64,000 nt of DNA. Origin: Rhizobium sp. Q54 (lineage in GTDB: Bacteria; Pseudomonadota; Alphaproteobacteria; UBA2966; CAIVPW01). Of this stretch, positions 27,230 to 50,644 are shown piece after piece. Within the stretch, counting starts at the first letter, position 1; each line of letters begins with the position of its first letter. Position numbers and translations under genes: made by a program. The stretch is taken from NCBI GenBank assembly GCA_945904955.1, contig CAMDPO010000007.1:11839-75838 (forward strand). Reading direction: 5' to 3'. Below the pieces are notes generated by a model that did no database searches, was not told the origin of the DNA, and saw only the letters and a program-made list of their open reading frames with translations.

Positions 27230-27835
27230 ATGAAGTCGTCCGACGGGTTCTTTTACGAAGGCGAAGTGTTCTATCCGTTCCAGGACATGCTGTTCAACGC
27301 GTTGCTCAGCTTCACGTTCATGTTCCTGGTCGCCTTCATGCTGATCAACCCGGTCGATCAGGACGCCAAGGTCGATCCGAAGGCCGAGTTCCTGATCACC
27401 ATCAATTGGCCCGACAACCACCCCGACGACATGGACCTGTACGTACAGGATCCGCAGGGCGGCATGGTTTGGTACAAGGGCCGCGAAGCCGGCCTGATGC
27501 ACCTCGATCGCGATGACCGCGGCAACTTCCGCGACGTCATCACCGTCGACGGCGTGCGCATCCAGAATCCGCTGAACCAAGAAACCGTGTCGATGCGCGG
27601 CTACATGCAGGGCGAGTACACGGTGAACATTCACCAGTACCTGGCGCAGAACGCAGTCGACAAAGTGCCGGTGTCGGTGAAGGTCGAGAAGCTCAATCCG
27701 GTGGTGACGCTGGTCTACTACGCGACCATCGAGATGCACGACCAGATGGAGCAGACGGTCACGCGCTTCACCCTCGACAACAACGGCGCCGTAACCGACA
27801 TGAAGTTCGACCCGAAGCCCCTGGCGCGCCGCTAG
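27230..27835 (+). CDS. Single-TM protein: ExbD/MotB-like TM with Asp plus periplasmic YfaP/DUF2135-like domain (paralogue A)
   Basis: AGGAG RBS; PFQDMLFNALL TM; W.D..PDDMDLYVQDP.G, LDRDDRG, NQE and GEYTVN. Confidence 0.78.
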   Translation: MKSSDGFFYEGEVFYPFQDMLFNALLSFTFMFLVAFMLINPVDQDAKVDPKAEFLITINWPDNHPDDMDLYVQDPQGGMVWYKGREAGLMHLDRDDRGNFRDVITVDGVRIQNPLNQETVSMRGYMQGEYTVNIHQYLAQNAVDKVPVSVKVEKLNPVVTLVYYATIEMHDQMEQTVTRFTLDNNGAVTDMKFDPKPLARR

Positions 27836-27878
27836 CGCGCCAGCAGCGCAAGTCGGGCGCGCCACCGACCGTGCGTCG

Positions 27879-28415
27879 ATGCGCGGGGGCTTTCTAGCAC
27901 TCGCGCTTCTCGCCTTTTCCGCCGGGGCCGCACCCATCGCGGCCTCCGCCGATCTGGACGGCCCACCGGCGTTTCTGATCACCGCTGTCTGGCCCGATCG
28001 CGACCCGGCCGACGTCGATCTGATCGTGCAAGACCCGCGCGACGGCATCGTCTGGTACAGGGCCCGCGAGACCGAGGTGTTGCGCCTAGATCGCGACGAT
28101 CGCGGCAACTTCCGCGACCCCGAGCCCCTCAACCAAGAGATCGTCTCCGTCCGCGGTGGCCTGCCGGGCGAGTACGTGGTCAATGTCAGCCAGTACGCCC
28201 TGACGGACGTCGAGGAACCCTTGCCGGTGTTCGTGCGGGTCCAGGCGATCAGCCCGGTTGCCCTGACGGTCTACGAGAAGACCGTAGAGATGCGCCGAGT
28301 CTACGAGGTGACCGTCGTGCGCTTCGTGCTCGACGATGCCGGACGCATCACATCCTTCACCTTCGAGGACAAGCCTCTCGCCGCGGCCGCGCGGACGAAG
28401 GTGGGACTGCGGTAA
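27879..28415 (+). CDS. Secreted YfaP/DUF2135-like domain protein (paralogue lacking the TM anchor)
   Basis: Signal peptide ending ASA; FLITAVWPD..PADVDLIVQDP, LDRDDRGNFRD, PLNQE and GEYVVNV shared with the upstream gene. Confidence 0.72.
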   Translation: MRGGFLALALLAFSAGAAPIAASADLDGPPAFLITAVWPDRDPADVDLIVQDPRDGIVWYRARETEVLRLDRDDRGNFRDPEPLNQEIVSVRGGLPGEYVVNVSQYALTDVEEPLPVFVRVQAISPVALTVYEKTVEMRRVYEVTVVRFVLDDAGRITSFTFEDKPLAAAARTKVGLR

Positions 28416-28439
28416 CCAAGCGGCCCCTCCTCGCGTGCG

Positions 28440-29438
28440 CTACGCGGAGAAGGTGCGCGTGTTGCCGTCCGGATAGGTGACGTAGGCGGTGGCGTTGCCG
28501 TGACGGCGCAGGATGCGCTCCGTCTCGGACGCAGGCGATACGTACACCGACGTGGATAGCGCGTCGGCATGGGTCGCGCGCGGAGCGACGATCGACACAC
28601 CGATGTGATGCGCCGCGCTGGCGCCGGTGCGTGGATCGAACAGGTGATGGAAGCGGCCACGGGCATCGAACACGGTGCCGTAGCCGCCCGAGGTTGCCAG
28701 CGACATGTTGGCGAGGTCGATCGACTGTGCGACGCGCGTCGGCTGGCGCGGATCCTTGAGGCCGATGACCCAGGGCCGCCCCTCGGGATGGTTGCCGAGA
28801 GCGCGTGCCTCACCGAGGTCGACCAGGACGTGGGCGATGCCTTGCTCGCGCAACAGGTCGGCGACCTTGTCGGTGATGTAGCCCTGGGCGATGCCGTCGA
28901 GGGTCACGCCCATGCCCTTGCGATCCAGCGCAACGAACAGCGGATTGACGTCGATGCGGCGATAGTCGACCAGGCCGACCGCGGCGCGAACGTCGGCGGC
29001 AGTTGGCCCCTCGGTCGCATCGGGCGTGCGCTTGAAGTGGACGGAATACAAATTCCAGAGCGGCTGCACGGTGACGTCGAACGCACCGTTGCTCAGCTCG
29101 CCGAAGCGCTTGGCCTCGGTCAGCAGGATGAGCATGTCCTGGGACGGCCGCGTGATGCGTCCGTCGCGATTGAGACGGGCAAGCTCGCTGTCCGGCTGGT
29201 GCAGGCTGAAGATGGCTTCGAGCCGGCGCACCTCCGTGACGGCCATGTCGATGATGCGCTTGGCCGCCTCCGCAGAGGTGTGGGCCAGGGTGAGCGAAGC
29301 GTCGGCGCCGAGCGCCGTGCCCTGCCACGTGAAGAGCTGAGCGTCCGCGCGGGCCGGGCGCATCGCGCCGGCGAGAGACATTCCTGCGGCGGCGCCGAAG
29401 ATCGCTAGAACACGACGACGGCTTGGAGCGGCGGCCAT
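28440..29438 (-). CDS. apbE: FAD:protein FMN transferase (ApbE/NosX-like), Tat signal
   Basis: SRRRVL Tat motif; GAFDVTVQPLW, LDGIAQGY, ATSGGYG, HHLFDPRTG and ADALST. Confidence 0.92.
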   Translation of the reverse strand: MAAAPSRRRVLAIFGAAAGMSLAGAMRPARADAQLFTWQGTALGADASLTLAHTSAEAAKRIIDMAVTEVRRLEAIFSLHQPDSELARLNRDGRITRPSQDMLILLTEAKRFGELSNGAFDVTVQPLWNLYSVHFKRTPDATEGPTAADVRAAVGLVDYRRIDVNPLFVALDRKGMGVTLDGIAQGYITDKVADLLREQGIAHVLVDLGEARALGNHPEGRPWVIGLKDPRQPTRVAQSIDLANMSLATSGGYGTVFDARGRFHHLFDPRTGASAAHHIGVSIVAPRATHADALSTSVYVSPASETERILRRHGNATAYVTYPDGNTRTFSA

Positions 29439-29558
29439 GACGGTGTGAACTCCTCCCATGCCGCGCCGAAGCACCGGTCCGCGCGGCGAACCCTTTTACC
29501 ACACCTTACGGTGGACATGGCTGCGCCCGGGCGACCGCAGAAAAACTAGGTATTTCCG

Positions 29559-30464
29559 TTAGTTAGCGCGTCCGATGCGCTGGATCATGCCGCGCTGCGG
29601 GTCATAGCCGATGGCAGCGAGAATGAAGCACGCCAGCGTGACGCCCACCACCACCGCCAATGCGACGGCGTTGAACTGGCCGTAGATCGCATAGCGGATC
29701 AACTCGATGACGTGGGTGAACGGATTGATCTGGGCGCCCCAGTACACGACGTCCGCACCGACCTCGCGCAGCTTCCACAGCGGGTAGAGCGCGGGCGAGA
29801 TGAAGAACATCGGGAAGATGACGAAGTTCATCGCGCCGGCAAAGTTCTCAAGCTGGCGGATGTACACCGACAGCAGCAAGCCCACCGACGACAACATCAT
29901 GCCGCTGAGGAATAGCGGTCCGAGCGCGTACAGCCAACCCGACCACGGGAGCGCCGCGGTAAGGCGCGGGAAGATGAAGCTGAAGCCGTAGGTGATCAGC
30001 AGAAAGATGTACGCCTGGATCACGGCCAGGAACGTCGCGCCCAGGAGCTTGAACAACAGGATCGCCCAGCGCGGCAGCGGCGCCGTCAGCAACAGGCGCA
30101 TCATGCCCATCTCGCGGTCGTAGACCATCGAGAGCGACGACTGCATGCCGTAGAAGAGCAGCACGATGCCGAGCAAGCCCGGCATGATGTACTCCTGGTA
30201 CGTCACGTAGGTCTGGTACGGCGGCACGATCGAGATGCCGAGCAGGCTGCCGATGCCGGCGGCGAACACGATCAGCCACAGCACCGGGCGGATCAACGCC
30301 GACGCCCAGCGGCCACGCTGGCGAATGAACTTGCCGATCTCGCGATTGGCGATGGCGTAGAGCGCCAGGCCCCAATGCACCATCGGCGATGCGCGCCGGG
30401 CGCGCCCGTCTTCGCCCTTGGCCGCGCCCGCCTGTGTCATCTCCGTGCTGAGTTGTGCGGTCAC
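29559..30464 (-). CDS. ABC-2 permease of PQQ-ADH-associated systems (PedC/LutF-like)
   Basis: PPYQTYVTYQEYIMPGL, GMQSSLSMVYDREMG and QLENFAGAMNFVIFPMFF. Confidence 0.85.
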   Translation of the reverse strand: MTAQLSTEMTQAGAAKGEDGRARRASPMVHWGLALYAIANREIGKFIRQRGRWASALIRPVLWLIVFAAGIGSLLGISIVPPYQTYVTYQEYIMPGLLGIVLLFYGMQSSLSMVYDREMGMMRLLLTAPLPRWAILLFKLLGATFLAVIQAYIFLLITYGFSFIFPRLTAALPWSGWLYALGPLFLSGMMLSSVGLLLSVYIRQLENFAGAMNFVIFPMFFISPALYPLWKLREVGADVVYWGAQINPFTHVIELIRYAIYGQFNAVALAVVVGVTLACFILAAIGYDPQRGMIQRIGRAN

Positions 30465-30469
30465 GGCGC

Positions 30470-31717
30470 CTAGAACCTGCAGGTTGTCTCGGGCCGATCG
30501 GCACCGAGAGTATCAAGATCGTTGGTGGCGTGCTCGAACTTCTCCATCGGCGCGCGCGCGATGACCGCATTCGGCAGCGTCAGGAAGACGTTCATGCGCA
30601 ACTGGTGGTCCCATGTGCGGAAGTCGAGCTGGCTGCCCATGTACCCGTCGAAGCGCAGCTGATCACTGAGGACGTATTCGCGGATCTGGCGATAGTCGAG
30701 CGACTTGACGCGGCTCTGGGCGAGCGTGAGCGCACGCACCGCAGCCCATGCCGACCAATCCGGTCCGTACATGAAGCGATTGGTGGCGGTGTGGAAGCGG
30801 CTGGACAGCTGCGGCGCGCCCTGGCGCTCCCAGGTCCAGTGCCACGCTTCCGGCGTCAGGCCGGCCGCACCGACCACGGGGCGCGCGCGCACAGTCTGAT
30901 ACGGGAACGTGCGCGCGAACTCGCCGTCCGTGTCGGCGATGAAGACGACGTCGTAGTCGCGATTGCCGCCGGTGAGTAGGCGCGTATTGTTGAGCTCGCG
31001 TTGGCGCGGGTCGTTGGACGGAAGGAACTTGCGCTCCTCGACCAAGCGCGCGCCGTTGCGCCGGATCGAACGCTTGAGCGCTTCGGCGACCTTGATGTCT
31101 TCGTCGAGCGGGCCCGTGAGCAGCAGAATGTTCACCCAGCCCTGGAACACCAGGTACTGCGTCACCGCGTCGGTGAGCATGTTGTAGCTCGGCGCCGTGT
31201 GGGCGAGGTTCTGCGAACAGAACGCGCCGCGCAGGCGATCGTCGGGGTTGGCGACGTTGAACAACATCACCTCCTGGCCGCGCACCGCCTGGCTGACCGC
31301 GCGCATGGTGTCGGTATCGGCGTCGATCAGGAAGAAGTTGACGCCCTGGTCCGCGCGGGCCTTTTCGATCCAGGCGACCAAGGCGGCGGCATTGGCGCCG
31401 CTGTGGCGGATCATCTCGAAGGACTGCCCGGAGAAGCGGCCGGTCTGGTTCGACTCGTCGATGCCAAGCTGGGCGCCCGGGAAGGGCTGATAGCGCGCGA
31501 CGGACGGTATGCGTACGCGCTCGCGGCCTGGCTGCGTGAGCGCATAGACGAACTCGCGGTCGTAGCGCGGGTCATTTTCGATGTCGACATAGCCGATCTT
31601 GAACAACGACGGCGCGGCCGGCGTCGCCGCGGGCGCGACGCCTTGTTGTGCCCACGCAGCGCTGGCGCCGAACGCCAGCAGGAACGCTGCGCCGATAGTA
31701 GCGATCAGGCGGTTCAT
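30470..31717 (-). CDS. ABC substrate-binding protein of PQQ-ADH-associated systems (PedA1/LutA-like)
   Basis: WHWTWERQGAPQLSSRF, DWSAWAAV, FRTWDHQLR and LDTLGADRPE..C motifs. Confidence 0.83.
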   Translation of the reverse strand: MNRLIATIGAAFLLAFGASAAWAQQGVAPAATPAAPSLFKIGYVDIENDPRYDREFVYALTQPGRERVRIPSVARYQPFPGAQLGIDESNQTGRFSGQSFEMIRHSGANAAALVAWIEKARADQGVNFFLIDADTDTMRAVSQAVRGQEVMLFNVANPDDRLRGAFCSQNLAHTAPSYNMLTDAVTQYLVFQGWVNILLLTGPLDEDIKVAEALKRSIRRNGARLVEERKFLPSNDPRQRELNNTRLLTGGNRDYDVVFIADTDGEFARTFPYQTVRARPVVGAAGLTPEAWHWTWERQGAPQLSSRFHTATNRFMYGPDWSAWAAVRALTLAQSRVKSLDYRQIREYVLSDQLRFDGYMGSQLDFRTWDHQLRMNVFLTLPNAVIARAPMEKFEHATNDLDTLGADRPETTCRF

Positions 31718-31738: not shown

Positions 31739-32779
31739 TCAGTTGCCGACGGGTGCCCAGCCAATGCGGTCGTTGACCAGCGGCGTGTACGGCACGCGAC
31801 CCGTGGGGACCGACTTCTGCACGCGCTTCGACGCAATATCGACGATCGACAAGTCGTCCGAGAGGCAGTTGGCAACCAATGCGGTCTTCTCATCGGACGT
31901 GAACGTGATGCCCCACGGGCGCGAGCCGACCAGGATGTACTGGTCGATCTTGCGCGTCGCCACGTCGACGACGGCGACATGATTGGCGCGGCCCAGGGTG
32001 ACCCACACCTTTTTGCCGTCGCTGGTCATCTCGAGGCCGACCGGCGTGACGTCGACCTGGCGGAAGCCCGGTGGCAGGAAGTTGATGACGTCGGTCACCT
32101 TGTAGCTGGCGACATCGACGATGTAGACCTCACCGGACAGCTCGCAGGTGATCCACAACTCCTTCTGGTCGGGCGTGATGCGCATGCGGCGCGGACGCGT
32201 GCCGACGACGACGTTGTCGAGGATGATGCCGCGCGCCACGTCGACCTTGTGGATCATGTCGGCGACTTCCGACGTCAGGTAGACGGTCTTGCCGTCGGGC
32301 ACGACGAGCACACCCTCCGGCTCGGCGCCCGAGGGCACCTCGTGCAGCAGCACCTTGTCCTCGATGCTGATGATCCACATCGAGGAGTCTTCCTCGTTGG
32401 CGATGAACATCGTCTTTTCGTCGGGACTGATGGTCAGCACCTCGGGACTCGGACCCGTCGGGATGGCATCGACGACCGTCTCTTTGGCGACGTCGATGAT
32501 GTCGACCACGTCCTCATCGCCGCACGCGACGTAGAGCAGCGTGTGCGCCGGGTTGAACACCATGCCGCGCGGACGGCGCGAGGTCTTGATGCGCTTGACC
32601 ACCTGGAAGCTGGTGCCATCGAGCACGGTCAGCTCGTGCGACTTTTCGTGGCTGATGTAGATACGGCCGGTGCCGACTGCCTGCGCGCCATTGGCGACCG
32701 GCATGCCGGCGAGGGCTGCGCCTGCGGCGCCCGCCTTGAGCAAGCCGCGGCGATTGGGGGTCCAGAAAGAGTTGGTCAT
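31739..32779 (-). CDS. YVTN beta-propeller protein (PedA2/LutB-like), Tat signal
   Basis: NRRGLL Tat motif; [28 protein letters not shown] and LVGSRPWG repeats. Confidence 0.85.
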   Translation of the reverse strand: MTNSFWTPNRRGLLKAGAAGAALAGMPVANGAQAVGTGRIYISHEKSHELTVLDGTSFQVVKRIKTSRRPRGMVFNPAHTLLYVACGDEDVVDIIDVAKETVVDAIPTGPSPEVLTISPDEKTMFIANEEDSSMWIISIEDKVLLHEVPSGAEPEGVLVVPDGKTVYLTSEVADMIHKVDVARGIILDNVVVGTRPRRMRITPDQKELWITCELSGEVYIVDVASYKVTDVINFLPPGFRQVDVTPVGLEMTSDGKKVWVTLGRANHVAVVDVATRKIDQYILVGSRPWGITFTSDEKTALVANCLSDDLSIVDIASKRVQKSVPTGRVPYTPLVNDRIGWAPVGN

Positions 32780-32847: not shown

Positions 32848-33273
32848 TTAGCGGACGATGAACTTGCCCTTCATGCCGCGGCCCTCATGGCCGGGCACAT
32901 AGAAGTCGTAGTCGCCCGGACGGATGGGCACGAACCAGACCTGCAGCAGCCCCGGGCCGTCGAACTCGACTTGATAGGGGGCGCCGGCCATATGGACCTC
33001 GATGTCGCCGACCTTGAACTCGTTGATCCACGAGTTGCGCCATAGCTCGGGCGCTGCAACGGCGAACTCTTCGCCGTCGGCGGCCATAGTGATGTCCCAG
33101 CGGTAATACTTCCCTGTCTCGAGCGTGTACTCGTAGTTGGACATCGTCAGGTCCGACTTGAGCGTCAGTTCAAGAGCGACGGGGCGGGATGCGAGATTGC
33201 CGGCCGAAAGCGCCGGTGGCGCGGTCGCCAAGAAGAGCGCAAGCGCAGCTCCGGATAGAAGTGCCTTTTTCAC
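32848..33273 (-). CDS. Secreted cupredoxin-like protein lacking the Cu-binding Cys
   Basis: GGGAGG RBS with GTG start at 33273; LETGKYY, FVPIRPG.Y.FYVPGHEGRGMKG. Confidence 0.75.
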   Translation of the reverse strand: MKKALLSGAALALFLATAPPALSAGNLASRPVALELTLKSDLTMSNYEYTLETGKYYRWDITMAADGEEFAVAAPELWRNSWINEFKVGDIEVHMAGAPYQVEFDGPGLLQVWFVPIRPGDYDFYVPGHEGRGMKGKFIVR

Positions 33274-33354
33274 GGTGTACCTCCCAGTCCCCGTGGTGGC
33301 CGCAGGACCAAGGGCGTCCATCCGGCCGGTCGCGTTTTCCGATCCCCTCACTAG

Positions 33355-33369
33355 GCAAGGCTCGTGCCA
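33355..33369 (-). promoter_or_regulatory. Sigma-54 (-24/-12) promoter
   Basis: TGGCAC-GAGCC-TTGC on the - strand, an exact consensus match, upstream of the 33273 start. Confidence 0.85.
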
Positions 33370-33525: not shown

Positions 33526-33942
33526 CTACTTGACGGTGATGGTCCCCGTCATCGTGCCTTCCTGGCCGAGCACGTAGTACTTGAACGAGCCGATGCGGAC
33601 CGGGACCAGCTGAATGCGGATCGTGCCGGCCGCGTCGAACTCGAGGAAACGCAGGCCGGACGGCTTGATCTCTTTGCCGTCGACGACGACCTGGAAGATG
33701 TACGAGTTGCCGAACAGGTCCGGAGCATGGAACTGCATCTCGGTGGTGCCGATCTGGGTGATGTCGAGGTTGTAGCCCTTGCCGGTCTCCATCTCGATGG
33801 CGGTGGTGGAGAACTTCTTGTCGGCGGTCATGTCGATCTTGATGGTCGTCGCGCCGGTGGTCAGGTTGCCGGCAGCGCCGGCCGAACCGGCCACGCCGAG
33901 CGCCACCAAGCTGGCGGCGGCGAGAGTACGAACAAGCTTCAT
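33526..33942 (-). CDS. Secreted cupredoxin-like protein, paralogue of 32848-33273
   Basis: GGGAGG RBS; mature N-terminus AGNL; METGKGY, APDLFGNS, LEFD and LVPVRIG. Confidence 0.75.
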   Translation of the reverse strand: MKLVRTLAAASLVALGVAGSAGAAGNLTTGATTIKIDMTADKKFSTTAIEMETGKGYNLDITQIGTTEMQFHAPDLFGNSYIFQVVVDGKEIKPSGLRFLEFDAAGTIRIQLVPVRIGSFKYYVLGQEGTMTGTITVK

Positions 33943-34035: not shown

Positions 34036-34050
34036 GCAAGGCCTATGCCA
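34036..34050 (-). promoter_or_regulatory. Sigma-54 (-24/-12) promoter
   Basis: TGGCAT-AGGCC-TTGC on the - strand upstream of the 33942 start. Confidence 0.8.
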
Positions 34051-34174: not shown

Positions 34175-34438
34175 CTAGCGCGCCTGTCCGAGGGCCCGGA
34201 AACCGCGTTGCAGTGAGGACCGGCAGCGATCCCAAAGGCCGAAATCGGCCGCGCCGTCGGCGAAGTCGAGCTGGTTTTCCGCTACGGTCTGGGCGTTGAT
34301 GCCGCCCGGCCAGTTGGCGATGGCGGCCTCGAGTTGGTCGATGCCGCTGCGGCAGGCGCGCTCGTCGGCGCGTTCGCTTGCGCCGGCACAGGCCGCAAGA
34401 GTTAGACAGGTGGCCACGCAAACGGACCAGCCGCGCAC
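34175..34438 (-). CDS. Small lipoprotein, LanD (LutD)-like three-helix pattern
   Basis: Lipobox LAAC; D..AC..GI...Q...L..A......G.WD.C...L....RAL; starts 9 bp after the regulator stop. Confidence 0.6.
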   Translation of the reverse strand: MRGWSVCVATCLTLAACAGASERADERACRSGIDQLEAAIANWPGGINAQTVAENQLDFADGAADFGLWDRCRSSLQRGFRALGQAR

Positions 34439-37501: not shown

Positions 37502-38310
<809 letters not shown>

Positions 38311-38311
<1 letters not shown>

Positions 38312-41086: not shown

Positions 41087-41433
41087 TTGTCCTCTCCTCA
41101 CGTTCGAATCGGGCCGAACCCCGGTTTCCGGCCCTGGCCTGGTGGCCAGTCCCGTGCGCACGCGACCCCTGCGCGAAAACCCGGTCGCTACCATAGCATC
41201 CCCCCTACTCCCGGACCACGCGGGCGCCCTGGTCGCGGCGCCCCTGCCGAGCCGACGAGGCGGTCTGCAGCTGGTCCGGAATCAAGAGGTTGGCCCTCTT
41301 CCGGTACCTGCTCACTCGCCCGAGAGTGGCGCCCGAATCAACCTATGTGCGGTATTGGGTTTTCCGCTGTTCGCGGCGCGCGGCGCTGGCCGTAAGGTGC
41401 GCGCGCGGAGGTGCCGACGATGACGATCAACCC

Positions 41434-41826
41434 ATGACGATCAAAGTCTTGCGACAGGCCGCCAGCCTGCTCGGCGTGGCCTGCCTGCTGGCGCTCGCGA
41501 GCCCGGCCCAGGCCCAAGACCCGGGCCTGCTCAAGTTCTGGACGACCTGCGGCGCCTGCCACACCCTCGATACGACAGGGGGCCATTCCGAGGGCCCGAA
41601 CCTGTGGGGCATCGTCGGCAAGACCATGGGTGTCCTGCCGCGCTTTGCGACCTATTCGGCGGCCATGAAAGAAGCGGCCGGCCGCAACGTCGTGTGGACC
41701 GAGGAGCTCCTCGACCGCTGGCTGCAGAACCCCCAAGCGATGGTGCCGGGCAACGAGATGGAGTTCAGCCTCGACGCCGCCGCCGACCGCGCAGCAGTCA
41801 TCGGCTACTTGCGCACCCAGCGCTAG
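41434..41826 (+). CDS. Class I c-type cytochrome (c2-like)
   Basis: Signal peptide; CGACH, GPNLWG and PGNEM. Confidence 0.88.
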   Translation: MTIKVLRQAASLLGVACLLALASPAQAQDPGLLKFWTTCGACHTLDTTGGHSEGPNLWGIVGKTMGVLPRFATYSAAMKEAAGRNVVWTEELLDRWLQNPQAMVPGNEMEFSLDAAADRAAVIGYLRTQR

Positions 41827-43215: not shown

Positions 43216-45069
43216 CTAGTTGATCTGGTATTCCGGCGTGCTCATGATCATGTGCGTGAGCATGCGCAGCGGGCTTTCCATGTAGGTCGTCGCCCGACTG
43301 ATGTCCTTGGTGCCGAGCTCGGTGTTCAGGAACGCGACCATCGATCCACGCGTTGTGCTCGACACGGGGATGCGCAGGAAGCGGCCCATCAGGTAATCGA
43401 CCGCCTCATCGGTGGTCTTCACGCCGGCGTCCACGACCATCTTGCTGAGGTCGACGCGCGCAGCGCCACGCGGCGTCGGGATCAGCTTGCGATAGGCGAG
43501 CTCCCACGCGTAGTAGCCGGAGACGCGGGTGTTGAAGAGCTCATCGCGCTCCTTCGCCACCATGTCGAAGGCGCCCATCATGCCGGGGTCGGCAAGCGCA
43601 GTGGCCTGGGTAAAGTCCTGGCCCTGGCGCAGGCGCGCACCGATCTGGCCGTCACCACCGGTAGCGGTCAGCAGGTTCGGGGCACGGAAGCCGGAGATGT
43701 CCGGGAACAGGAAGTCGCGCGCGACGTTGCCGCGTTCCAGGATCAGCGCCGGGGTCACCCACGACTTGCCCTGGGCCCAGCCAGCCACGGACGGCGGGTT
43801 GAGCAGGTGCTGGCCGAGAGCGACGGTGATGCTGTTGAAGTCCGGGATGCCGGGAACGTCTTCGGCGCCCAGCTGCTTCAGCATGGTAACGACGTGCTCG
43901 ACGGGGCCCTTGATGTGCGAGCCGTACGAGGCCGCGCTGTAGAAGTCCTTCGACAGGAACATTGCCTGCAGCAGCGGCTTCATCTCGTAGTTGCTGTCGC
44001 GCAGGATCTTGCCGAGCTGGGCCTGATACTCCGGCGACAGATCGTCGCGCACGAAGAAGCGATAGGTCTTGCCCGCGATGTAATTCGCGGTGACCGGCTG
44101 CTCCATGATGATCTTGAGCACGTCGACGCCGTTGAAGTTGCCGGTACGGCCAAGGAACGTCTTCACGCCGTCGTCGTGCTTGTCCTTGTCGACGACGAAG
44201 TCGAGGTTGTCGAAGTTCCAGCCGGTGAAGGCGCGGGCGGCTTCGCGGACGTCCTTCTCGATGTAGTTGCCGACGCCCATGGTGAAGAGCTCCATCACCT
44301 CACGAGCGAAGTTCTCGTTGGCGGCGCCCTTAACGTTCACGCCAGCGTCGAGGTAGTAGAGCATCGCCGGGTTCTGGGCGACGGCGACGGCCAGCTGCGA
44401 GAAGTTGCCGGTGGCGTACTTCTCGAACATGTCGATCTGCTGAACCATCTTGCGATAGTCGCGGACCTTGCCCTCGGCAGTGGCGAAGTGGCCGTGCCAG
44501 AACAGCGCCATCTTCTCTTCGAGCGGGTGCGAGGTGTCGAGCATGCGCTCGGCCCACCAGTAGCCGACGCGACGGGTCTCGAGGTCGGTGGCGCGCAGCC
44601 AGAAGAAGAAGCGATCGGACGTCGGCTGGACGGCGCGGTTGCCTTCCGGCTTGTTCATCACGCCGATGTTGCCGCCGTCCTTGAGCGCCTTGTCGGTCGC
44701 CGCCGGGCGGCTGTCCGGGAAGTAGGTCAGGGACGGGTCCCAGAAGCCCGACTCTTCGAACGGCTTGAGCTTCGGGTTCGGGGTGGTCTCGTAAAAGACC
44801 AGCGAGCGGACGGCGCGGTCCGGAGTCATCGCGGCGAGGCGCGCGATCTCTTCCGGGGTGCCGCTGAAGCCGGCGCGCGACAACAGGTGCGCTGCGCGGT
44901 CGTAATTCCAGTCGGCCGCGGTGATGGGCGACATGTCGCCCTTCCAGTTGGCCGGACCCGGGCTGAACGCGCCCAGTCCCGCTGGACCGGCGGACATCGC
45001 CGCTCCGGTCACGGCGATGGCCATGGCCGCCCCCGCGAGGGCGGCAATGCCGCGCTTGCGAATCGTCAT
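43216..45069 (-). CDS. DUF1800 family protein
   Basis: AAHLLSRAGF, EKMALFWHGHF, NENFAREVMELFTMG and PPSVAGW; GAGG RBS. Confidence 0.88.
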   Translation of the reverse strand: MTIRKRGIAALAGAAMAIAVTGAAMSAGPAGLGAFSPGPANWKGDMSPITAADWNYDRAAHLLSRAGFSGTPEEIARLAAMTPDRAVRSLVFYETTPNPKLKPFEESGFWDPSLTYFPDSRPAATDKALKDGGNIGVMNKPEGNRAVQPTSDRFFFWLRATDLETRRVGYWWAERMLDTSHPLEEKMALFWHGHFATAEGKVRDYRKMVQQIDMFEKYATGNFSQLAVAVAQNPAMLYYLDAGVNVKGAANENFAREVMELFTMGVGNYIEKDVREAARAFTGWNFDNLDFVVDKDKHDDGVKTFLGRTGNFNGVDVLKIIMEQPVTANYIAGKTYRFFVRDDLSPEYQAQLGKILRDSNYEMKPLLQAMFLSKDFYSAASYGSHIKGPVEHVVTMLKQLGAEDVPGIPDFNSITVALGQHLLNPPSVAGWAQGKSWVTPALILERGNVARDFLFPDISGFRAPNLLTATGGDGQIGARLRQGQDFTQATALADPGMMGAFDMVAKERDELFNTRVSGYYAWELAYRKLIPTPRGAARVDLSKMVVDAGVKTTDEAVDYLMGRFLRIPVSSTTRGSMVAFLNTELGTKDISRATTYMESPLRMLTHMIMSTPEYQIN

Positions 45070-45232
45070 AGTGAGGTACCTCCCAGAAAATTCTGTGGCC
45101 GGAATGTGCTTGGGCTCGGGGAGGGGTTTCACCTATACGAAGCATAGGCCTGGAAAGCCGCCGCTGGGGCCGGACTCCGGGCGGTTGCGGCCGGGCCGGC
45201 GGTCGGCCGATTCCGCTGAAAAGCTGCCTATT

Positions 45233-47293
45233 TCACGCCGCAGGAGCGTTGATTAGCTCGACGCGGGCCTGGCGCCGCTTGGCTCTTTGGACCAGGGGCG
45301 GGCAGACGGCTTCGTCGTGGTAGGCGACCTGGCAGTCGAGGCACTGCAGGCACTCGTTCATGTCGATGGCGCCCGTTGGCGCGATCGCGCCAACCGGGCA
45401 GTGCGTCTCGCAGATGCGGCACTCCGACCCGCATTGGGACCGCCGTCGCAGCCACCGCACCATGCGCAGGCGCCCCATCACGGCGAGGGACGCGCCCAGG
45501 GGACACAGGAAGCGACAATAGAAGCGCTCGACGAACAGGCCGATCAGCAATAGCCCCGCCGCATAGAGCACGTAGGGTGCCTCGCGCGCGAACTTGACGC
45601 TGATGGCAATCTTGAATGGTTCGACCTCGGCCGCGCTGTGCGACAGCGCCGGCGCGACGAACACCAGCACGATGATGACGATGGCAACGAGGTACTTCAC
45701 GGCCCACAGCCGCTCGTGCACCGCGCGCGGGACGCGCACCTGCGGCACGCGCAGTGCGGTGGCGACGCGGTTGGACAGCTCCTGCAGCGCGCCGAACGGG
45801 CACAGCCAGCCGCAATAGACGCCCCGCCCGACCAGCAGCAGCGTGAGACCGGTGTAGGCGCACAGCACCAATACAATCGGATCGAGCAGCAAGGTCGAGA
45901 GCGGCGTGCCGGTGAACGGCGCCTGCAAGAACGCGAGGACGTTGACGACGGACAACTGCCCGCCGGCCCACCAGCCAAGCCAGACGAGCGTCACGGTCAG
46001 GACGGCAACGCGCGTCCAGGCGTAGACGGCCGGCCGCCGCACGAGCGCATCCTGGAACACGAACACGGCGGTGACCGCCGCCAGGAGCGCCAGCAGAATG
46101 ACGATGTCGGTGCGCTTGTGCTGCCACGCCTCGACCCACGCCGGGGGCGGTTCGGGCGGCGGCAGGAGAATGTGTTCGGCGGGCAGCGTGTAGGGGACGC
46201 TGAACGGCACCGACAGAGCGGCGCCGTTCGCTGTGCGGCCGGCGACATCCACGACCAGCCGCCACGGCGACAAGGAATCGATCCCGGCGGACGGCGGCAG
46301 GAAGACGAGCGCCGCGTCGAGTTCGTCGAGCTCGGCACCGCCGCCGACGGCGCGCAGGGCGCGCAACATGGACGGCACAATGCGCACGGTGGTGCCGCCC
46401 TGGACGATCGACACGACTTCCTCAAAGAACCCGGTCGGCAGCCGAGCGCGCTCGGTGCTGGCGTACGGATACTGGCCGACGCTGGCGATCCAGACGGTGA
46501 GTCCGCCCTCGCCCTGGCGATCCATCGCCTCGTTGAAACGCTGAAGGCCGACGATGTTGGCGCCGATCGCCGGCGGCGTCAGCAGCGCCACGGAGATGTC
46601 GAGAAACGGCGCCGCCGAGTCGCGGGGTTCGTGCACCGGCGCGCCACCAACCCCTGCAAACGCGCGCACGACGTCGGCGTAGGACGCGCGCAGCGTGATG
46701 AGCGCGCCGCTGCGGCGCAGCTCGTCGGTGCTGGCCGTGGCGACGCGGGCGCGATCGAGGGTGGGCACGAGCACGTCGGCCTTCGGCAGGCGTTCGGAAG
46801 AGACGACCCGCGCCGCCGACTGCATGCCGCTCTTCATGAGACGCGCGCTGGTCGTCGCGCCCTTGACCTGGTCGGGGCGCACGGCGCGCCAATCGTTGAG
46901 GGTTGCCGCCGCGAACCCAGCAATGAAGGTCTCCATCACCCCGCGGCTGACGCCGCGGTTCAAGATCGACTCGTGCTCCTCGAGCAGCGCCGCGCCGGTG
47001 ATGCGCCCATCCAGCGCGATGCCACCGATGAGATCGAAGGCCGTGCCGGAATATCCGGTGGCATTGACGGTGTCGCGCGTCGAGAAGATGTAGCCCGCCA
47101 GTGCACCGCCGATGCGCACCGGCAAAGCAGGCGGTGTTCCTTCCGCGTCACCGACGTCTTCGGCGCCGGGAAATACTTGCTCGATCAGCGCCGGTGTCAG
47201 GCGCGCGCGCAGACCACCGATGTCAGCGGCACGCGCCGGCGACACCGCGGCGAGCAGCAGCAACGCAACGAGCAGTGCGCGGCGACGAAACAT
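45233..47293 (-). CDS. NosR/NirI-like membrane protein: FMN-binding domain plus 4Fe-4S C-terminus
   Basis: TGYSG and D..KGATTS flavinylation-type motif; YCGWLCPFGALQE, FYCRFLCPLGA, C.ICETHCP and ECLQCLDC. Confidence 0.88.
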   Translation of the reverse strand: MFRRRALLVALLLLAAVSPARAADIGGLRARLTPALIEQVFPGAEDVGDAEGTPPALPVRIGGALAGYIFSTRDTVNATGYSGTAFDLIGGIALDGRITGAALLEEHESILNRGVSRGVMETFIAGFAAATLNDWRAVRPDQVKGATTSARLMKSGMQSAARVVSSERLPKADVLVPTLDRARVATASTDELRRSGALITLRASYADVVRAFAGVGGAPVHEPRDSAAPFLDISVALLTPPAIGANIVGLQRFNEAMDRQGEGGLTVWIASVGQYPYASTERARLPTGFFEEVVSIVQGGTTVRIVPSMLRALRAVGGGAELDELDAALVFLPPSAGIDSLSPWRLVVDVAGRTANGAALSVPFSVPYTLPAEHILLPPPEPPPAWVEAWQHKRTDIVILLALLAAVTAVFVFQDALVRRPAVYAWTRVAVLTVTLVWLGWWAGGQLSVVNVLAFLQAPFTGTPLSTLLLDPIVLVLCAYTGLTLLLVGRGVYCGWLCPFGALQELSNRVATALRVPQVRVPRAVHERLWAVKYLVAIVIIVLVFVAPALSHSAAEVEPFKIAISVKFAREAPYVLYAAGLLLIGLFVERFYCRFLCPLGASLAVMGRLRMVRWLRRRSQCGSECRICETHCPVGAIAPTGAIDMNECLQCLDCQVAYHDEAVCPPLVQRAKRRQARVELINAPAA

Positions 47294-47328: not shown

Positions 47329-47748
47329 ATGCGAAGGCTGACTTTGCCGCTGGCGGCGGCCGCAGCGGCGTGGCTCTCCGGCGCGACGGTACCGTCCGCG
47401 CAGTTCTTTGGCATGGATCCGGGCGAAGTCCTGTTCGGCGAATGCCGCGACTGCCACAACTTTGCGGAAGGTGCGGGGCCGGGGCGCAAGGCGCCAAATC
47501 TGTGGGGCGTCTTTGGCCGCACCGCCGGAACCGTGCCGGGCTGGGACTACACGCCGGAGCTCAAGGGCTCCGGCATCGTGTGGACCGAGACGACCATGGA
47601 CAAGTGGTTGCGCAATCCGGGCGCCGTGGTGCCAGGCACCAAGATGGACTTCCAGGTGCCGAACGACGAGCAGCGCGAACTCGTGCTCGAGTACATCCGG
47701 AACGCCGACCTGGCGGGCTACGTGCGCGCCATTCAGGGCTTGAAGTAA
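47329..47748 (+). CDS. Class I c-type cytochrome (c2-like)
   Basis: Signal peptide; CRDCH, APNLWGVFGR and PGTKM. Confidence 0.88.
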   Translation: MRRLTLPLAAAAAAWLSGATVPSAQFFGMDPGEVLFGECRDCHNFAEGAGPGRKAPNLWGVFGRTAGTVPGWDYTPELKGSGIVWTETTMDKWLRNPGAVVPGTKMDFQVPNDEQRELVLEYIRNADLAGYVRAIQGLK

Positions 47749-47759
47749 CGCCCTCGGGC

Positions 47760-47859: not shown

Positions 47860-47868
47860 ACTCGAACG

Positions 47869-47897: not shown

Positions 47898-47918
47898 GTT
47901 TCAGAAATGCAGCGTACT

Positions 47919-48521
47919 TCAGTTCGCGCCGGCGGTGAAATCCTTGTCGGGCAGCGTGACGTTCTGCAGAGCGCCGAGCCTCAAGACCTGATCCTCGACG
48001 CGCAACTCGGTCGGATCGGTATAGCCGGTGTCGGTGCGATCCATCTGCTGCAACTGCGCCAGCTGCTGGTCGTCCGTGCCGCGATCCTGCTCTTCCTCGT
48101 CATACATCTCGGCAGTGCCACCGACCTCTTGGCCGTTGGTGATCATGTCGAGGGCGTTCTGGATGCCGGTCTCGAGCGGCTGCGTGTACGGCAGGCGGTA
48201 GGCGCGCGGCACGCCGTTCGGCACGTTGTTCTTGTCGAGCGCTTCCACCCACATGTAGACGGCACCCGCCTGGTTCATCAGCTTGTCGGGCTCGTTGACC
48301 TTGGCCCACAGCAGCTGGAACTTTTCAGGCAGGCGATCTTTCACCGGCCAGCCCATCAAGTCGATCATCGAGTAGTACGAGATGACGAAGAAGGCCGAGG
48401 TGACGACGATCGCCGTAGCCTTGACCCACCACGCCCAGCGCGGCGCGATGTTCAGGCTGAGCAGCAGGACGGCCATGATCACGTAGGCCGCGAGAACTCC
48501 GATGAAACCGAGGGACAACAT
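47919..48521 (-). CDS. Two-TM hypothetical protein, third gene of the MotA-like operon
   Basis: Two N-terminal TMs; GWP..LP..F.LLW..V.EPDK and PRAYRLPY; acidic C-terminal tail. Confidence 0.75.
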   Translation of the reverse strand: MLSLGFIGVLAAYVIMAVLLLSLNIAPRWAWWVKATAIVVTSAFFVISYYSMIDLMGWPVKDRLPEKFQLLWAKVNEPDKLMNQAGAVYMWVEALDKNNVPNGVPRAYRLPYTQPLETGIQNALDMITNGQEVGGTAEMYDEEEQDRGTDDQQLAQLQQMDRTDTGYTDPTELRVEDQVLRLGALQNVTLPDKDFTAGAN

Positions 48522-48526: not shown

Positions 48527-49144
48527 TCAGGCTCCCTTCCTGGAGCGCACAAGGGTCTTGGGCCGGCGGTTGACGTCGGCGATGGCTCCCTTTTCGTCCA
48601 TCGTGAAGCGGACGGCGGTGAGCTCCTGACCCTTATGGTCGAGGTGCAGCGTCGTGTAGAACACGAGCGAGACCTCTGGATTCAGCTTTTCCACCTTCAG
48701 CTCGACCGGCACGTCTTCGGTGCCGTTGGCGAGATAGTGGTGGACGTTGATGACGTACTCGCCCGGCACGATGCCGCGGATCGTCACCGTTTCCTGGTTG
48801 AGCGGGTTCGAAATCTTGTTGTTCCCGAGGGCGATGGTGTCGCGGTAGTTGCCGCGATCGTCGCGATCGAGGTGCATCAGCCCGGCTTCCTTGACGTGGT
48901 ACCAGACAACGCCGCCGTTCGGATCTTCGACGTAGAGATCGACATCGTCCGCGTGGTTGTCCGGCCACTTCATGGTGATGAGCACTTCGGCCTTCGGGTC
49001 GATCTTGCCCGACTGCGCCGTCGGATTGATCAACATGAAGGCGATCAAGAACATGAAGGTGAAGCTCAACAGGGCATTAAAGAGCATGTCCTGGAACGGA
49101 TAGAAGACTTCACCCTCGTAGAAGAAGCCGTCGGATGACTTCAT
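48527..49144 (-). CDS. Single-TM protein: ExbD/MotB-like TM with Asp plus YfaP/DUF2135-like domain (paralogue B)
   Basis: First 41 aa are 40/41 identical to 27230-27835; lies directly downstream of the MotA-like gene. Confidence 0.8.
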   Translation of the reverse strand: MKSSDGFFYEGEVFYPFQDMLFNALLSFTFMFLIAFMLINPTAQSGKIDPKAEVLITMKWPDNHADDVDLYVEDPNGGVVWYHVKEAGLMHLDRDDRGNYRDTIALGNNKISNPLNQETVTIRGIVPGEYVINVHHYLANGTEDVPVELKVEKLNPEVSLVFYTTLHLDHKGQELTAVRFTMDEKGAIADVNRRPKTLVRSRKGA

Positions 49145-49177
49145 GACGCGCCCCGCGTGCCTAGACGGATGTGACTG

Positions 49178-49972
49178 CTACGCGGCTTCGCTCTGGAGCG
49201 CCGGCACCACGTACATGTCGGTCGTCTCGGCGATCAGGGAGTGCAGTTCGATCGTGCCGATCTCGAGGAAGTAGTACTGCAGCTTCAGCACGATCGAGCC
49301 GATCAGCGCGGTGAGGGTCACCGACAACGCGGTGGCCATACCGACCGACATGTCGGACATCGCGGCGCGCAGGGTCAGCGGATCGAAGCTGTCGATGCCG
49401 CGGATGGGCCCCAGCATCAGCATGAAGCCGATGACGGTGCCGACCAGGCCGATCTTGGGCAGGGCGTCGACGATGAACACGCCGACCTGCAAGCGGGCGC
49501 GCAGAGAGTCGGCCATCGCGTGCATGAGGAGCGAGTGATCGAGCGGCTCGCCGCTCGGATTGCGCGCCTTGACGATGACGTTGCGGACGTGATCGGTCAG
49601 CGCACCGGCAGGCAACACCGCTCCGTCGCCAGAGGTGACGTCGCCGTTCTCGTTGATGCGGAAGTTGGTGGGGTTCTTGCGGATCGTGCGCGCGACGCGG
49701 CGGGCAACGTTGAGTTCACGCGACACTGCAACCGTCGAGAAGCCGCAGTGGATGGTGGCGCCGATGAACACCAGCGTCACCAAGCTGGACAGATACGTGC
49801 GGTCGGATGCGACCATGTCGTGGAAGAGGCCGACCTGGAAGATCGCGAACAGCGCCACGACGATGAGCGACGCGACGATCAGCCAACGCAGCAACAGCAT
49901 GTAGTCACGCAGCTCGAAGGGCGTGACGATGACTCGCGGCCCCGGACCGCCGGTAAGTTCAGAAGTGCTCAT
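49178..49972 (-). CDS. MotA/TolQ/ExbB proton channel family protein
   Basis: LPKIGLVGTVIGF and GMATALSVTL.AL C-terminal helices; two N-terminal TMs. Confidence 0.85.
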   Translation of the reverse strand: MSTSELTGGPGPRVIVTPFELRDYMLLLRWLIVASLIVVALFAIFQVGLFHDMVASDRTYLSSLVTLVFIGATIHCGFSTVAVSRELNVARRVARTIRKNPTNFRINENGDVTSGDGAVLPAGALTDHVRNVIVKARNPSGEPLDHSLLMHAMADSLRARLQVGVFIVDALPKIGLVGTVIGFMLMLGPIRGIDSFDPLTLRAAMSDMSVGMATALSVTLTALIGSIVLKLQYYFLEIGTIELHSLIAETTDMYVVPALQSEAA

Positions 49973-50122
49973 GGAATTTTGCCCACCCAAGTGCTGCGCG
50001 GATTCGAAGGCCCGCGCCCGTACCCCGCCCAAAACTAATGGACACCATAGTGTGGAAGCTCACACTGAATCAAGCGGCCCTTACCGCGCGGGAACCCTTG
50101 TGATCCGCGGATTTCCGTGTTC

Positions 50123-50644
50123 TCAGCGCAAGCGTTGCCGGTACTCCCACGGCAAGATGAACGGGCCCTGCCAGGCCCCCACGCCGGCCACGTCGGCGAC
50201 CTTTTCGGCGGCGACGTAATCCATCGTCTGCTCGCGCACGGCCAGTGCCATGCCACGCCGCACCAGCAAATCGGCGATGTCCTTGCCGTTGATGATGCAG
50301 GTGCCCCACGGCGTGCCACGCCGGCGCGGATCGGGGTCTTCGCGTGGGGTGCACGCGACCGGCCCGCCCTCATCGAACAGGATCTTTTCCATCTCGCGGT
50401 AGGCGACGGCGCCGCACGACCACGGCTTGCCGTTCAAGAAGCAGCTTTGGTCCTGCTCCAGCGCGTCGATCCCGAAAAGGTGAAAGCGCCGTCCGTTCAC
50501 GTACAGGACGTCGGTGTCGATTATCTGGGCGTTGCCGACGACGTTCTTTTCGTCGGCGTCAGGCACGGGCGCCACGGCCTGCGCCGGCGCACTACCCGCG
50601 CTCAGACAGACGATCAGTGCCGCAGCAGTGTTCGTTCGCCACAT
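50123..50644 (-). CDS. Thermonuclease (SNase) family secreted protein
   Basis: LFGIDALE..Q.C...G..W.CG, LVRRGMA, Y.AAE..A...G.W.G.F..PWEYR. Confidence 0.83.
   Translation of the reverse strand: MWRTNTAAALIVCLSAGSAPAQAVAPVPDADEKNVVGNAQIIDTDVLYVNGRRFHLFGIDALEQDQSCFLNGKPWSCGAVAYREMEKILFDEGGPVACTPREDPDPRRRGTPWGTCIINGKDIADLLVRRGMALAVREQTMDYVAAEKVADVAGVGAWQGPFILPWEYRQRLR

Follow-up and report, generated by a model that had tools for sequence, protein, structure and literature searches.

A Lut/Ped-type and PqqT-type transporter locus with cupredoxin-fold and NosR-like proteins in Rhizobium sp. Q54

The window analysed here is a 64,000-nucleotide stretch of the Rhizobium sp. Q54 genome (positions 11839-75838 of contig CAMDPO010000007.1, hereafter C7), in which about 23 kb (27230..50644) had been described in an original prediction as a stand-alone hub for pyrroloquinoline quinone (PQQ) and lanthanide scavenging. 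This region is probably a composite around one real unit, accompanied by a redox module, by parts encoded outside and by lineage-specific neighbours. The unit would be the core at 28440-41194 on the minus strand, which encodes the genome's only high-scoring Lut/Ped-type ATP-binding cassette (ABC) system, a putative lanthanide-acquisition transporter, merged with a PqqT-type ABC system predicted to bind PQQ. The evidence consists of family memberships, gene order, co-occurrence among genomes, promoter-like sites and the absence of nosZ and nirS matches. Alcohol oxidation that depends on lanthanides is common among bacteria of soil and water, and the periplasmic trafficking of metal and PQQ, as well as the fate of the electrons, is only partly known.

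The genome comprises 2.38 Mb in 64 contigs and is 94% complete, C7 accounting for 86 kb. Genes in the window were called by codon-position GC and then scanned against Pfam and NCBIfam. Comparisons were made with a sample of 301 Alphaproteobacteria (G000 being the own genome), 42 of which, own genome counted, encode a TIGR03863-type binding protein at E ≤ 1e-40. From 20 of the other 41 positive genomes, picked for long contigs before their content was known, we took the DNA within ±20 kb of this gene as the set of lut loci.

Transporter core, its control and its partners

The Lut/Ped-type system comprises four proteins, all encoded on the minus strand, and three of them exceed their TIGRFAM cut-offs: an ABC-2 permease of PedC/LutF type (29559..30464; TIGR03861, 323.5 bits versus 241.35), an ABC ATPase of PedB/LutE type (37502..38311; TIGR03864, 324.8 bits versus 302.25) and a YVTN beta-propeller protein of PedA2/LutB type (31739..32779; TIGR03866, 305.9 bits versus 287.3), which carries a twin-arginine (Tat) export signal. 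The fourth, a periplasmic binding protein of PedA1/LutA type (30470..31717), scores 403.1 bits in the TIGR03863 search, for which the cut-off is 413.6. It is the sole strong TIGR03863 match genome-wide, the runner-up having 57 bits, and 10 of the 42 positive genomes likewise lie below this cut-off. The PedA1/A2/B/C (LutA/B/E/F)-like system of the original prediction was thus recovered by the TIGRFAM scan. All four genes are present in 18 of the 20 lut loci, adjacent in most, and the proteins of the sampled loci are 31-59% identical to their Pseudomonas putida and Methylorubrum extorquens homologues. In the window the four genes are not contiguous: two genes for cupredoxin-fold proteins (cup1 and cup2), a small lipoprotein open reading frame (ORF) and a two-component system separate the ATPase gene from the other three (29559-32779). 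Genetic studies of P. putida and M. extorquens, in the parts of the reports drawn on here, tie homologous systems to lanthanide-dependent growth and describe mutants that accumulate periplasmic lanthanum (PMC6839425, PMC7391723). By analogy with these homologues, the Lut-type system would move lanthanide from the periplasm inward. A divergent second Ped-like ABC system is encoded on contig C37, beside three dehydrogenase ORFs.

The second ABC system of the core (38311-41194, minus strand) had been called PqqT-like and of the NitT/TauT type, and its putative PQQ-binding periplasmic protein (40067..41194) agrees with this, matching PqqT in the PDB (9b1u/9b1v; 156 bits, E = 1.1e-44 and 286 aligned residues against 9b1u_A). 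The system further includes a BPD_transp_1 permease identified by Pfam (39134..40030) and a NitT/TauT-type ATPase (38311..39126; ABC_tran, E = 9.4e-29), whose best NCBIfam matches are the SaoA, SsuB and TauB types, every one below its cut-off. In PqqT, according to the part of the report available, PQQ is contacted by the side chains of T41, K142 and N143 and by the backbone at L37, A42 and G112 (PMC11331073). The window protein has T41, K142, L37 and G112 in identical form, with A42 replaced by V and N143 by S, and from its likeness to PqqT the second system is predicted to bind PQQ. PqqT-like proteins occur in 34 of the 301 genomes, and PqqT-type transporters travel with Lut systems, since 33 of these 34 genomes also have the Lut binding protein. 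The two binding-protein genes lie no more than 25 kb apart on one contig in 18 of the 34, and a PqqT-like ABC system is found at 8 of the 20 lut loci.

A sigma-54 two-component system, also part of the original prediction, is encoded at 34448-37398 on the minus strand. It consists of a response regulator with REC, AAA+ and HTH_8 domains (34448..35917; Sigma54_activat, E = 1.1e-62) and a sensor histidine kinase (35914..37398) in which Pfam recognizes HAMP, HisKA and HATPase domains and which has a periplasmic loop of about 150 amino acids between two hydrophobic segments. The PedB-type ATPase gene starts with an ATG at 38311 that stands behind an AGGAGG and shares bases with the stop codon of the gene for the PqqT-system ATPase, and the Lut ATPase is therefore expected to be made jointly with the PqqT-type transporter and the two-component system. 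The PqqT-like gene would head this operon, which would run through the ATPase genes into those for the histidine kinase and the sigma-54 response regulator.

Exact matches to the sigma-54 -24/-12 consensus are located directly upstream of cup1 (TGGCAC-N5-TTGC, 33355..33369, minus strand) and cup2 (TGGCAT-N5-TTGC, 34036..34050, minus strand). The exact pattern TGGCAY-N5-TTGC is expected 0.29 times in the window, and its two occurrences were equalled by 5 of 100 shuffles; with one mismatch allowed, the pattern is not enriched in the window (6 versus 8.1 expected). Genome-wide there are 19 exact sites, three of which precede flagellin genes, which supports the motif. Six of the 19 precede cup2, cup1, the PedA2-like propeller gene on C37, a TonB-dependent receptor gene on C9 (two sites) and the gene for a paralogue of the window regulator (65% identity), also on C9 and beside the receptor gene. 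We infer that the regulator would fire the two promoters before cup2 and cup1, which would head a cup-lutB-lutA-lutF-apbE operon. This lineage may have placed Lut and PqqT-type transporters under sigma-54 control together with a TonB receptor.

Contigs from a lake-water RNA library (X1), 90-99% alike to the window, cover 27 of the 30 bins of 28001-48000, but they come from related strains, DNA carry-over is possible, and they are not proof of transcription. One X1 contig of 517 nucleotides (32834-33349, with 11 differences) spans cup1 and stops six bases short of its sigma-54 site, which is a hint only, as contigs cannot define RNA ends.

The statement that no dehydrogenase, pqq gene or TonB receptor is encoded in the cluster was accurate, as all matches in the genome are on other contigs. 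The PQQ alcohol dehydrogenase model TIGR03075 has 17 matches, none on C7 and none above its cut-off (best 468.2 versus 480.05 bits). Of these, C18:45440-45700 and two pieces on C59 were dropped as short fragments, and the remaining 14 ORFs were aligned. Twelve of the 14 have the D-x-D signature, that is, the catalytic Asp and an Asp at position +2, which we take to be the lanthanide ligand; one of the twelve is interrupted by two in-frame stops, and another two are truncated at contig ends. In the enzyme encoded on C11, D-Y-D is aligned against the D-F-T of the Ca-type enzyme 1kv9. The genes pqqB, pqqC and pqqE are all on C17, with scores over their cut-offs.

Only two TonB-dependent receptors were found in the genome, on C9 and C15. 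The C9 receptor gene is preceded by the gene for the sigma-54 regulator paralogue and followed by tonB. Its product shares 41% identity across 762 aligned positions with a receptor encoded in the lut neighbourhood of genome G228, and its best solved relative is PqqU/YncD (E = 1e-16, C-terminal part only). This receptor is probably a member of the same regulon, because sigma-54 promoter-like sites precede its gene and the paralogous regulator adjoins it. A 787-residue protein containing a MauG/di-haem cytochrome c peroxidase domain is encoded just upstream of the paralogous regulator and the receptor (G000:C9, L020:5098-7461). The outer-membrane step would be carried out by the C9 receptor and TonB, with pqqB/C/E on C17 and about 12 lanthanide-type dehydrogenases on other contigs completing the system.

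The cluster is thus likely to serve enzymes encoded elsewhere, as had been suggested, and the genome search located 14 PQQ-dehydrogenase ORFs, pqqB/C/E and the TonB receptor off C7. The other suggested option, an unrecognized catalytic partner inside the cluster, found no candidate. Nor is the absence of a dehydrogenase gene unusual: a PQQ dehydrogenase is encoded at 12 of the 20 other alphaproteobacterial lut loci, and the remaining 8 also lack one within ±20 kb. The refuting outcome named in the original prediction, ABC components outside the Ped/Lut/PqqT clades in a genome without quinoproteins, did not arise.

Cupredoxin-fold proteins and a small lipoprotein

The proteins encoded by cup1 (32848..33321) and cup2 (33526..33942), both on the minus strand, are secreted paralogues with 34% identity. 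All top Foldseek matches of the AlphaFold2 model of cup2 (predicted local distance difference test, pLDDT, 83.8) are cupredoxins (among them 4hcf, AcoP and azurin), with E-values from 1.3e-6, a probability of 1.00 and TM-scores of up to 0.86 on the target. Pfam matches of the cup proteins are sub-threshold, and the earlier description of two cupredoxin-like proteins stands at the level of the fold. Neither protein has Cys/His copper ligands. A profile search of 1.84 billion representatives returned 319 proteins at E ≤ 0.001, of which 145 reach E ≤ 1e-10, and an alignment of 90 rows was made from cup1, cup2 and 88 representatives of 125-165 residues. No conserved Cys or His is present in this alignment, in which the ligand loop keeps only a Met/Leu; the conserved residues are G54, Y57, E91, E101, D103 and R116. 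Named members come from Methylobacterium crusticola, Marinivivus, Marinobacterium and Pelagibacteraceae, and no Methylorubrum extorquens record is among the best 120 of 336 profile matches.

In the 301 genomes the cup profile marks 21 places in 17 genomes, and 17 of these 21 places are no more than 4 kb from a Lut binding-protein gene, the exceptions being G000:C8, G064 and two places in G084. This count is unbiased and is the strongest evidence that the cup family belongs to the Lut system. A cup homologue is present at 9 of the 20 lut loci. A predicted complex of the LutA-like and LutB-like proteins with cup2 as partner scored 0.00 against a mark of 0.32, which is no evidence either way. The third cup paralogue of the genome (163 residues; G000:C8:49313-49804, L018:7314-7805) is encoded beside ATP synthase genes, away from lut. 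Across the 20 loci, a cup gene (9 loci) and a PqqT-like ABC system (8 loci) beside the Lut core are nearly mutually exclusive.

We propose that cup1 and cup2 could be periplasmic accessories of lanthanide trafficking in which the copper site was lost and conserved carboxylates were kept. The titles and abstracts of the literature listed treat no cupredoxin-like Lut protein. As a small secreted family tied to the Lut transporter, the cup proteins are a concrete and testable candidate, and proteins of this sort that bind metals also attract interest for separating rare earths.

The lipoprotein of the original prediction is a predicted one of 87 residues with the lipobox L-A-A-C, read from sequence and lineage-specific (34175..34438, minus strand), whose homologues were found only in the related loci L024 and L025. 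The ORF exists, but the label "LanD-like" did not survive. LanD has five strictly conserved residues, R69, E70, E73, E75 and E78 (R-E-x-x-E-x-E-x-x-E), according to the part of the LanD report available (PMC11551332). All five are absent from the window protein, which has no Pfam match and no PDB match at E ≤ 10 in a copy not confirmed to contain the LanD entries, and its identity with LanD was rejected. A six-frame scan of the genome for the LanD motif gave only two chance places, in unrelated frames.

ApbE, NosR-like proteins and cytochromes c

The operon of the cup, lutB, lutA and lutF genes ends with a gene for an ApbE FAD:protein FMN transferase (28440..29474, minus strand; Pfam ApbE, E = 1.6e-66). 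This is the single PF02424 match in the genome, and an ApbE gene occupies the same place after the PedC gene in G096, a genome from the same family and another genus. The NosR-like protein that had been listed together with ApbE is encoded at 45233..47293 on the minus strand and is a predicted membrane flavo-iron-sulfur protein of the NosR/NirI family. Its score with the NosR model NF046105 is 493.9 bits, below the cut-off of 1000, although the alignment covers positions 18-680 of 680. It has a flavinylation-type motif (D-x-x-K-G-A-T-T-S) and two conserved CX3CP motifs and keeps the C-terminal Cys clusters. The two cytochromes c of the original prediction were found by their CxxCH motifs; both are secreted monohaem proteins encoded on the plus strand. 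One (41434..41826; CGACH) has a called start and signal peptide and matches Pfam Cytochrom_C at E = 5.1e-5, and the other (47329..47748; CRDCH) is encoded divergently from the NosR-like gene.

Three NosR-like paralogues but only one ApbE, the window copy, are encoded in the own genome, where no NosZ match was found at E ≤ 1e-30 and a search for NirS gave only weak matches to two PedA2-type propellers. In the sample, NosR-like matches are present in 50 of the 301 genomes and NosZ in 32. We took NosR-like loci not beside nosZ (31), beside nosZ (9), from lut loci (4) and from the own genome (3). The tree left out four rows: second segments of long ORFs (two rows), a single ORF truncated at a locus end and a second copy in an ORF of 1137 residues. 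Many of the "orphan" NosR-like genes adjoin nirS and nir cofactor genes, often with ApbE, an arrangement which we take to be NirI-NirX, in names as well as in roles. Of the 17 NirS-adjacent rows sampled, 12 have an ApbE gene no more than 0.2 kb from the NirI-type gene.

The tree of 47 NosR-like proteins falls into two sides. One comprises 28 rows, that is, 9 NosZ-linked, 17 NirS-linked and two at contig ends, and the other, to which the window protein belongs, 19 rows, namely all 10 rows linked to PQQ or lut genes and 9 without informative neighbours. The split had an SH-aLRT (Shimodaira-Hasegawa-like approximate likelihood ratio test) support of 100 in a quick tree and, in a careful tree, a bootstrap of 82 and an SH-aLRT of 100.

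A PQQ dehydrogenase is encoded no more than 0.4 kb from a NosR-like gene in G182, G275 and G119, 2.6 kb from it on contig C42 of the own genome and 5.5 kb from it in G096:C8, and in G253 a series of cytochrome c, XoxJ-like, NosR-like and ApbE genes stands beside lutA. At the 20 lut loci, a NosR-like gene was found in 4, an ApbE gene in 4, and either or both in 5. In several alphaproteobacterial families a NosR-type protein is repeatedly encoded next to a PQQ dehydrogenase, some of the genomes having no denitrification enzymes. It is the second concrete and testable candidate from this island, and the titles and abstracts of the literature listed mention no NosR-like protein in PQQ systems. Proteins of 1279 and 1178 residues with NosR-like modules are encoded directly beside a PQQ dehydrogenase in G275 (L118, G275:C1:1240642-1260641, positions 9923-13762) and G119 (L120). 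The N-terminal cytochrome c domain fused to NosR-like modules in the G275 protein provides a Rosetta-stone-type link between NosR-like proteins and c-type cytochromes.

ApbE would flavinylate the three NosR-like paralogues, whose most likely role is electron transfer linking a periplasmic cytochrome c or dehydrogenases with the membrane or cytoplasm; another possibility is that, as with NirI and NosR, the expression or upkeep of a periplasmic enzyme depends on them. A joint interpretation of the two accessory families can be offered only tentatively. In it, the Cys-less cup proteins would be periplasmic chaperones of the Lut system that use their conserved carboxylates to bind lanthanide or a lanthanide chelate, and the NosR-like proteins with ApbE would be a third branch of the NosR/NirI family, wiring lanthanide-PQQ dehydrogenases through cytochrome c to a membrane or cytoplasmic redox pool or gating their expression. 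NosR plays such a role for N2O reductase, and NirI for nitrite reductase. If true, two unstudied families would be missing parts of bacterial lanthanide and PQQ biology.

Neighbouring genes, alternative readings and known systems

From 50644 down to 28440, genes are mainly on the minus strand, interspersed with three short plus-strand genes, and form at least six transcription units across both strands. The order is SNase-like gene, MotA/ExbB-like gene, TMjr gene, gene for a 200-residue membrane protein, plus-strand cytochrome c gene, NosR-like, DUF1800 and DUF1501 genes and plus-strand cytochrome c gene; then the genes for the PqqT-like binding protein, its permease and ATPase, the PedB-type ATPase, the histidine kinase, the sigma-54 response regulator and the small lipoprotein; and finally cup2, cup1, the genes for the PedA2-type propeller, PedA1-type binding protein and PedC-type permease, and the ApbE gene, with which two plus-strand TMjr paralogues are convergent. 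The cluster is flanked by a Urt/Liv-like ABC system on one side (23486-27120; permease, two ATPases and binding protein, all below the urea-transporter cut-offs) and by the methionine salvage genes mtnC and mtnB on the other (50717-52915). The GC content of the window is about 68%, and a compositional island signature is absent.

Apart from the LanD-like lipoprotein, ten of the eleven items listed for this stretch in the original prediction were confirmed, and the SNase label is sub-threshold. The DUF1501 protein (41938..43188, minus strand; E = 9.1e-21) has a Tat-type signal (SRRQAL) and is encoded next to a DUF1800 protein (43216..45132, minus strand; E = 1.5e-107). Two thioredoxin-like genes adjoin a second DUF1800/DUF1501 pair on G000:C12 (L019:6917-9538), and C27 has one more copy of DUF1800. 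The predicted motor module includes a MotA/TolQ/ExbB-family proton-channel protein (49178..50032, minus strand; PF01618, 31.3 bits versus 22.9), one of five such proteins encoded in the genome, a protein that we call TMjr (48527..49144, minus strand) and a 200-residue membrane protein with an acidic C-terminal tail and no family assignment (47919..48521, minus strand), which is syntenic in L024, L025 and G096.

TMjr has a single transmembrane helix, which contains an Asp, and a periplasmic domain of beta-sandwich type (AlphaFold2 model, pLDDT 64.1, with helix 16-39, D19 and beta strands). An Asp in a single transmembrane helix is the criterion for an ExbD-type partner, and TMjr is a candidate ExbD/TolR-like partner of the MotA-like protein, with no ExbD match in Pfam. 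Leads to its fold are all weak: Pfam PPC at E = 0.03, DUF2135/YfaP in the Atlas and a protease PPC domain at E = 0.5 (phmmer versus PDB). Foldseek found nothing at E ≤ 0.001, the best matches being Ca-binding TerD-family proteins at 6e-3. Two paralogues are encoded on the plus strand at the other end of the cluster: one with a transmembrane helix and a beta-sandwich periplasmic domain (27230..27835; 67% identity, no Pfam match), which is probably a neighbour and not part of the lanthanide/PQQ unit, and one secreted, with a signal peptide and no membrane anchor (27879..28415; 41% identity). With G000:C43:9444-10055 there are four paralogues, three membrane-anchored and one secreted, which share the invariant acidic loop L-D-R-D-D-R-G-N. 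An inverted repeat with arms of 321 nucleotides (27228-27548 and 48826-49146; 80% complementary) was rejected as a mobile-element boundary, the arms being parts of the paralogous TMjr genes.

The secreted SNase-fold-like protein (50123..50644, minus strand) scores 17.1 bits against a Pfam threshold of 21 and has no PDB match at E ≤ 1; the label of the original prediction is weak for the window copy, and paralogues elsewhere in the genome reach E = 6e-8. This family is expanded, with about 20 tblastn copies on C21, C40, C42 and C44 in tandem arrays of up to six (C44) and four (C42), and on C42 and in G096:C8 there are copies no more than 0.7 kb from NosR-like paralogues. An insertion sequence-type integrase (rve) gene (G000:C42, L016:14592-15668) edges the C42 cluster of dehydrogenase, NosR-like and SNase-like genes.

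The original prediction took all of the roughly 23 kb, including the DUF1800/DUF1501, cytochrome, MotA/TMjr and SNase-like genes, to be one stand-alone hub that scavenges cofactors and routes electrons. There are points in its favour. The full gene order is kept in four related metagenome-assembled genome records, whose PqqT-like proteins are 57-92% identical to that of the window, and the closest relatives, L024, L025 and L027, keep the whole of it. The SNase-like genes recur beside NosR-like paralogues on C42 and in G096:C8, and of the 18 genomes in which TMjr matches are strong, 13 also have the Lut binding protein. G096, however, has the order ApbE-PedC-binding protein-propeller-cup-cup-response regulator-histidine kinase-PedB-PqqT ABC with the MotA module directly after it, which speaks for the single hub, while the block of NosR-like, DUF1800, DUF1501 and cytochrome genes is not at this site. 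DUF1800/DUF1501 genes were found at none of the 20 lut loci and the MotA module at one, that of G096. TMjr proteins occur in 41 of the 301 genomes, and their genes adjoin lut genes in the own genome and G096 only; elsewhere they are on other contigs or hundreds of kb away, all those that share a contig with a Lut binding-protein gene being more than 190 kb from it. Together with the number of transcription units, this makes a single hub unlikely. The DUF1800/DUF1501 genes, the MotA/TMjr module and the SNase-like gene are more plausibly lineage-specific neighbours.

A somewhat less likely alternative, which we regard as improbable, is that the cargo is not a lanthanide: the Ped/Lut-like ABC-2 system and the cup proteins would handle export or recapture of PQQ or an alcohol-derived compound, calcium or copper, in a cluster for PQQ and quinoprotein maturation. 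ABC-2 permeases are usually exporters, NCBIfam names TIGR03861 an "alcohol ABC transporter" permease, the PqqT-type system is fused into the same operon, and cup relatives are labelled as copper-binding. The genetic ties of the P. putida and M. extorquens homologues to lanthanide-dependent growth (PMC6839425, PMC7391723, as far as the parts available go), the D-x-D type of 12 of the 14 dehydrogenase ORFs and the lack of conserved Cys/His in the cup family all argue the other way. A Nos-like assembly or N-oxide system is very improbable and largely refuted. It would consist of the NosR-like protein, a NosX-like ApbE, a NosYF-like ABC-2 permease and ATPase, the propeller, cupredoxin domains and a NosL-like lipoprotein and would service a split copper enzyme resembling N2O reductase. 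The parts list does resemble a nos cluster, the propeller partially matches the clade III L-NosZ model and NosZ cupredoxin domains are among the Foldseek matches of cup2. The L-NosZ match of 111 bits is nevertheless far below the cut-off of 700 for a protein that passes TIGR03866, and the propeller has only six His, fewer than the seven of the CuZ site. The conserved Cys/His that a CuA site needs are missing from the cup family, the NosZ search of the genome was negative at E ≤ 1e-30, and the window NosR-like protein is outside the NosR/NirI side of the tree.

The reading we prefer, a Lut/Ped-PqqT unit with a redox module among lineage-specific neighbours, has points against it as well. The LutA-type protein narrowly misses its curated cut-off, the sigma-54 sites are no more than matches to a consensus, and the specificities for lanthanide and PQQ are transferred from homologues in P. 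putida and M. extorquens, not taken from this organism. The lanthanide role of the cup proteins is a proposal, and public names of their relatives are "hypothetical" or, less favourably, "cupredoxin-like copper-binding protein". Adjacency of cup and PqqT-type ABC genes coincides, besides the window itself, only in G096 of the 20 loci, and co-occurrence counts overstate significance because kin are not independent. With regard to the redox module, the bootstrap of 82 for the split is below the 95 mark, 9 of the 19 rows on its side of the tree are those without informative neighbours, the NosR-like gene is 16 kb from ApbE in the window, and its nearest G096 relative is not beside lut or dehydrogenase genes.

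Compared with known systems, the redox module resembles the NirI-NirX and NosR-NosX pairs of denitrifiers in its periplasmic FMN-type motif, two CX3CP motifs, C-terminal Cys clusters and ApbE partner. It differs in that the genome has no nosZ or nirS match, and in that the protein groups outside the NosR/NirI side and is encoded next to cytochrome c, PQQ dehydrogenase or lut genes. The cup proteins are predicted to share the cupredoxin beta-sandwich fold with type 1 copper proteins (azurin, AcoP and the Cupredoxin_1 protein 4HCF), but the His/Cys/His/Met copper ligands are not kept and Glu/Asp residues (E91, E101 and D103) are conserved instead. Like PqqT of M. extorquens AM1 (PDB 9B1U), the PqqT-like protein is a group II periplasmic binding protein; here its gene comes first in an operon shared with the genes for the Lut ATPase and regulators.

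PedA1A2BC of P. putida KT2440 consists of the same four families (TIGR03863, TIGR03866, TIGR03864 and TIGR03861) and, in the part of the report available, is needed for growth at nanomolar lanthanum, with no lutH-like receptor adjoining (PMC6839425). In P. putida the four genes are one predicted transcript beside pedE and pedH, whereas here they are in two operons 5 kb apart and no dehydrogenase was found anywhere on the 86-kb contig. The Lut cluster of M. extorquens AM1 (lutABCDEFGH and lanM), as described in the part of its report available, likewise combines an ABC permease and an ATPase with a binding protein and a propeller-type protein that is exported, has small periplasmic proteins of unknown function alongside, and serves XoxF/ExaF-type lanthanide enzymes (PMC7391723). 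In contrast to that setting, the genome analysed here has no LanD signature in the six-frame motif scan, its TonB receptor is on another contig, its ATPase is in a separate operon coupled to the PqqT-type system, a sigma-54 two-component system would be in control, and ApbE ends the operon. The island is a variant of the already known Lut/Ped-PqqT systems, with two under-studied families, the cup and NosR-like proteins.

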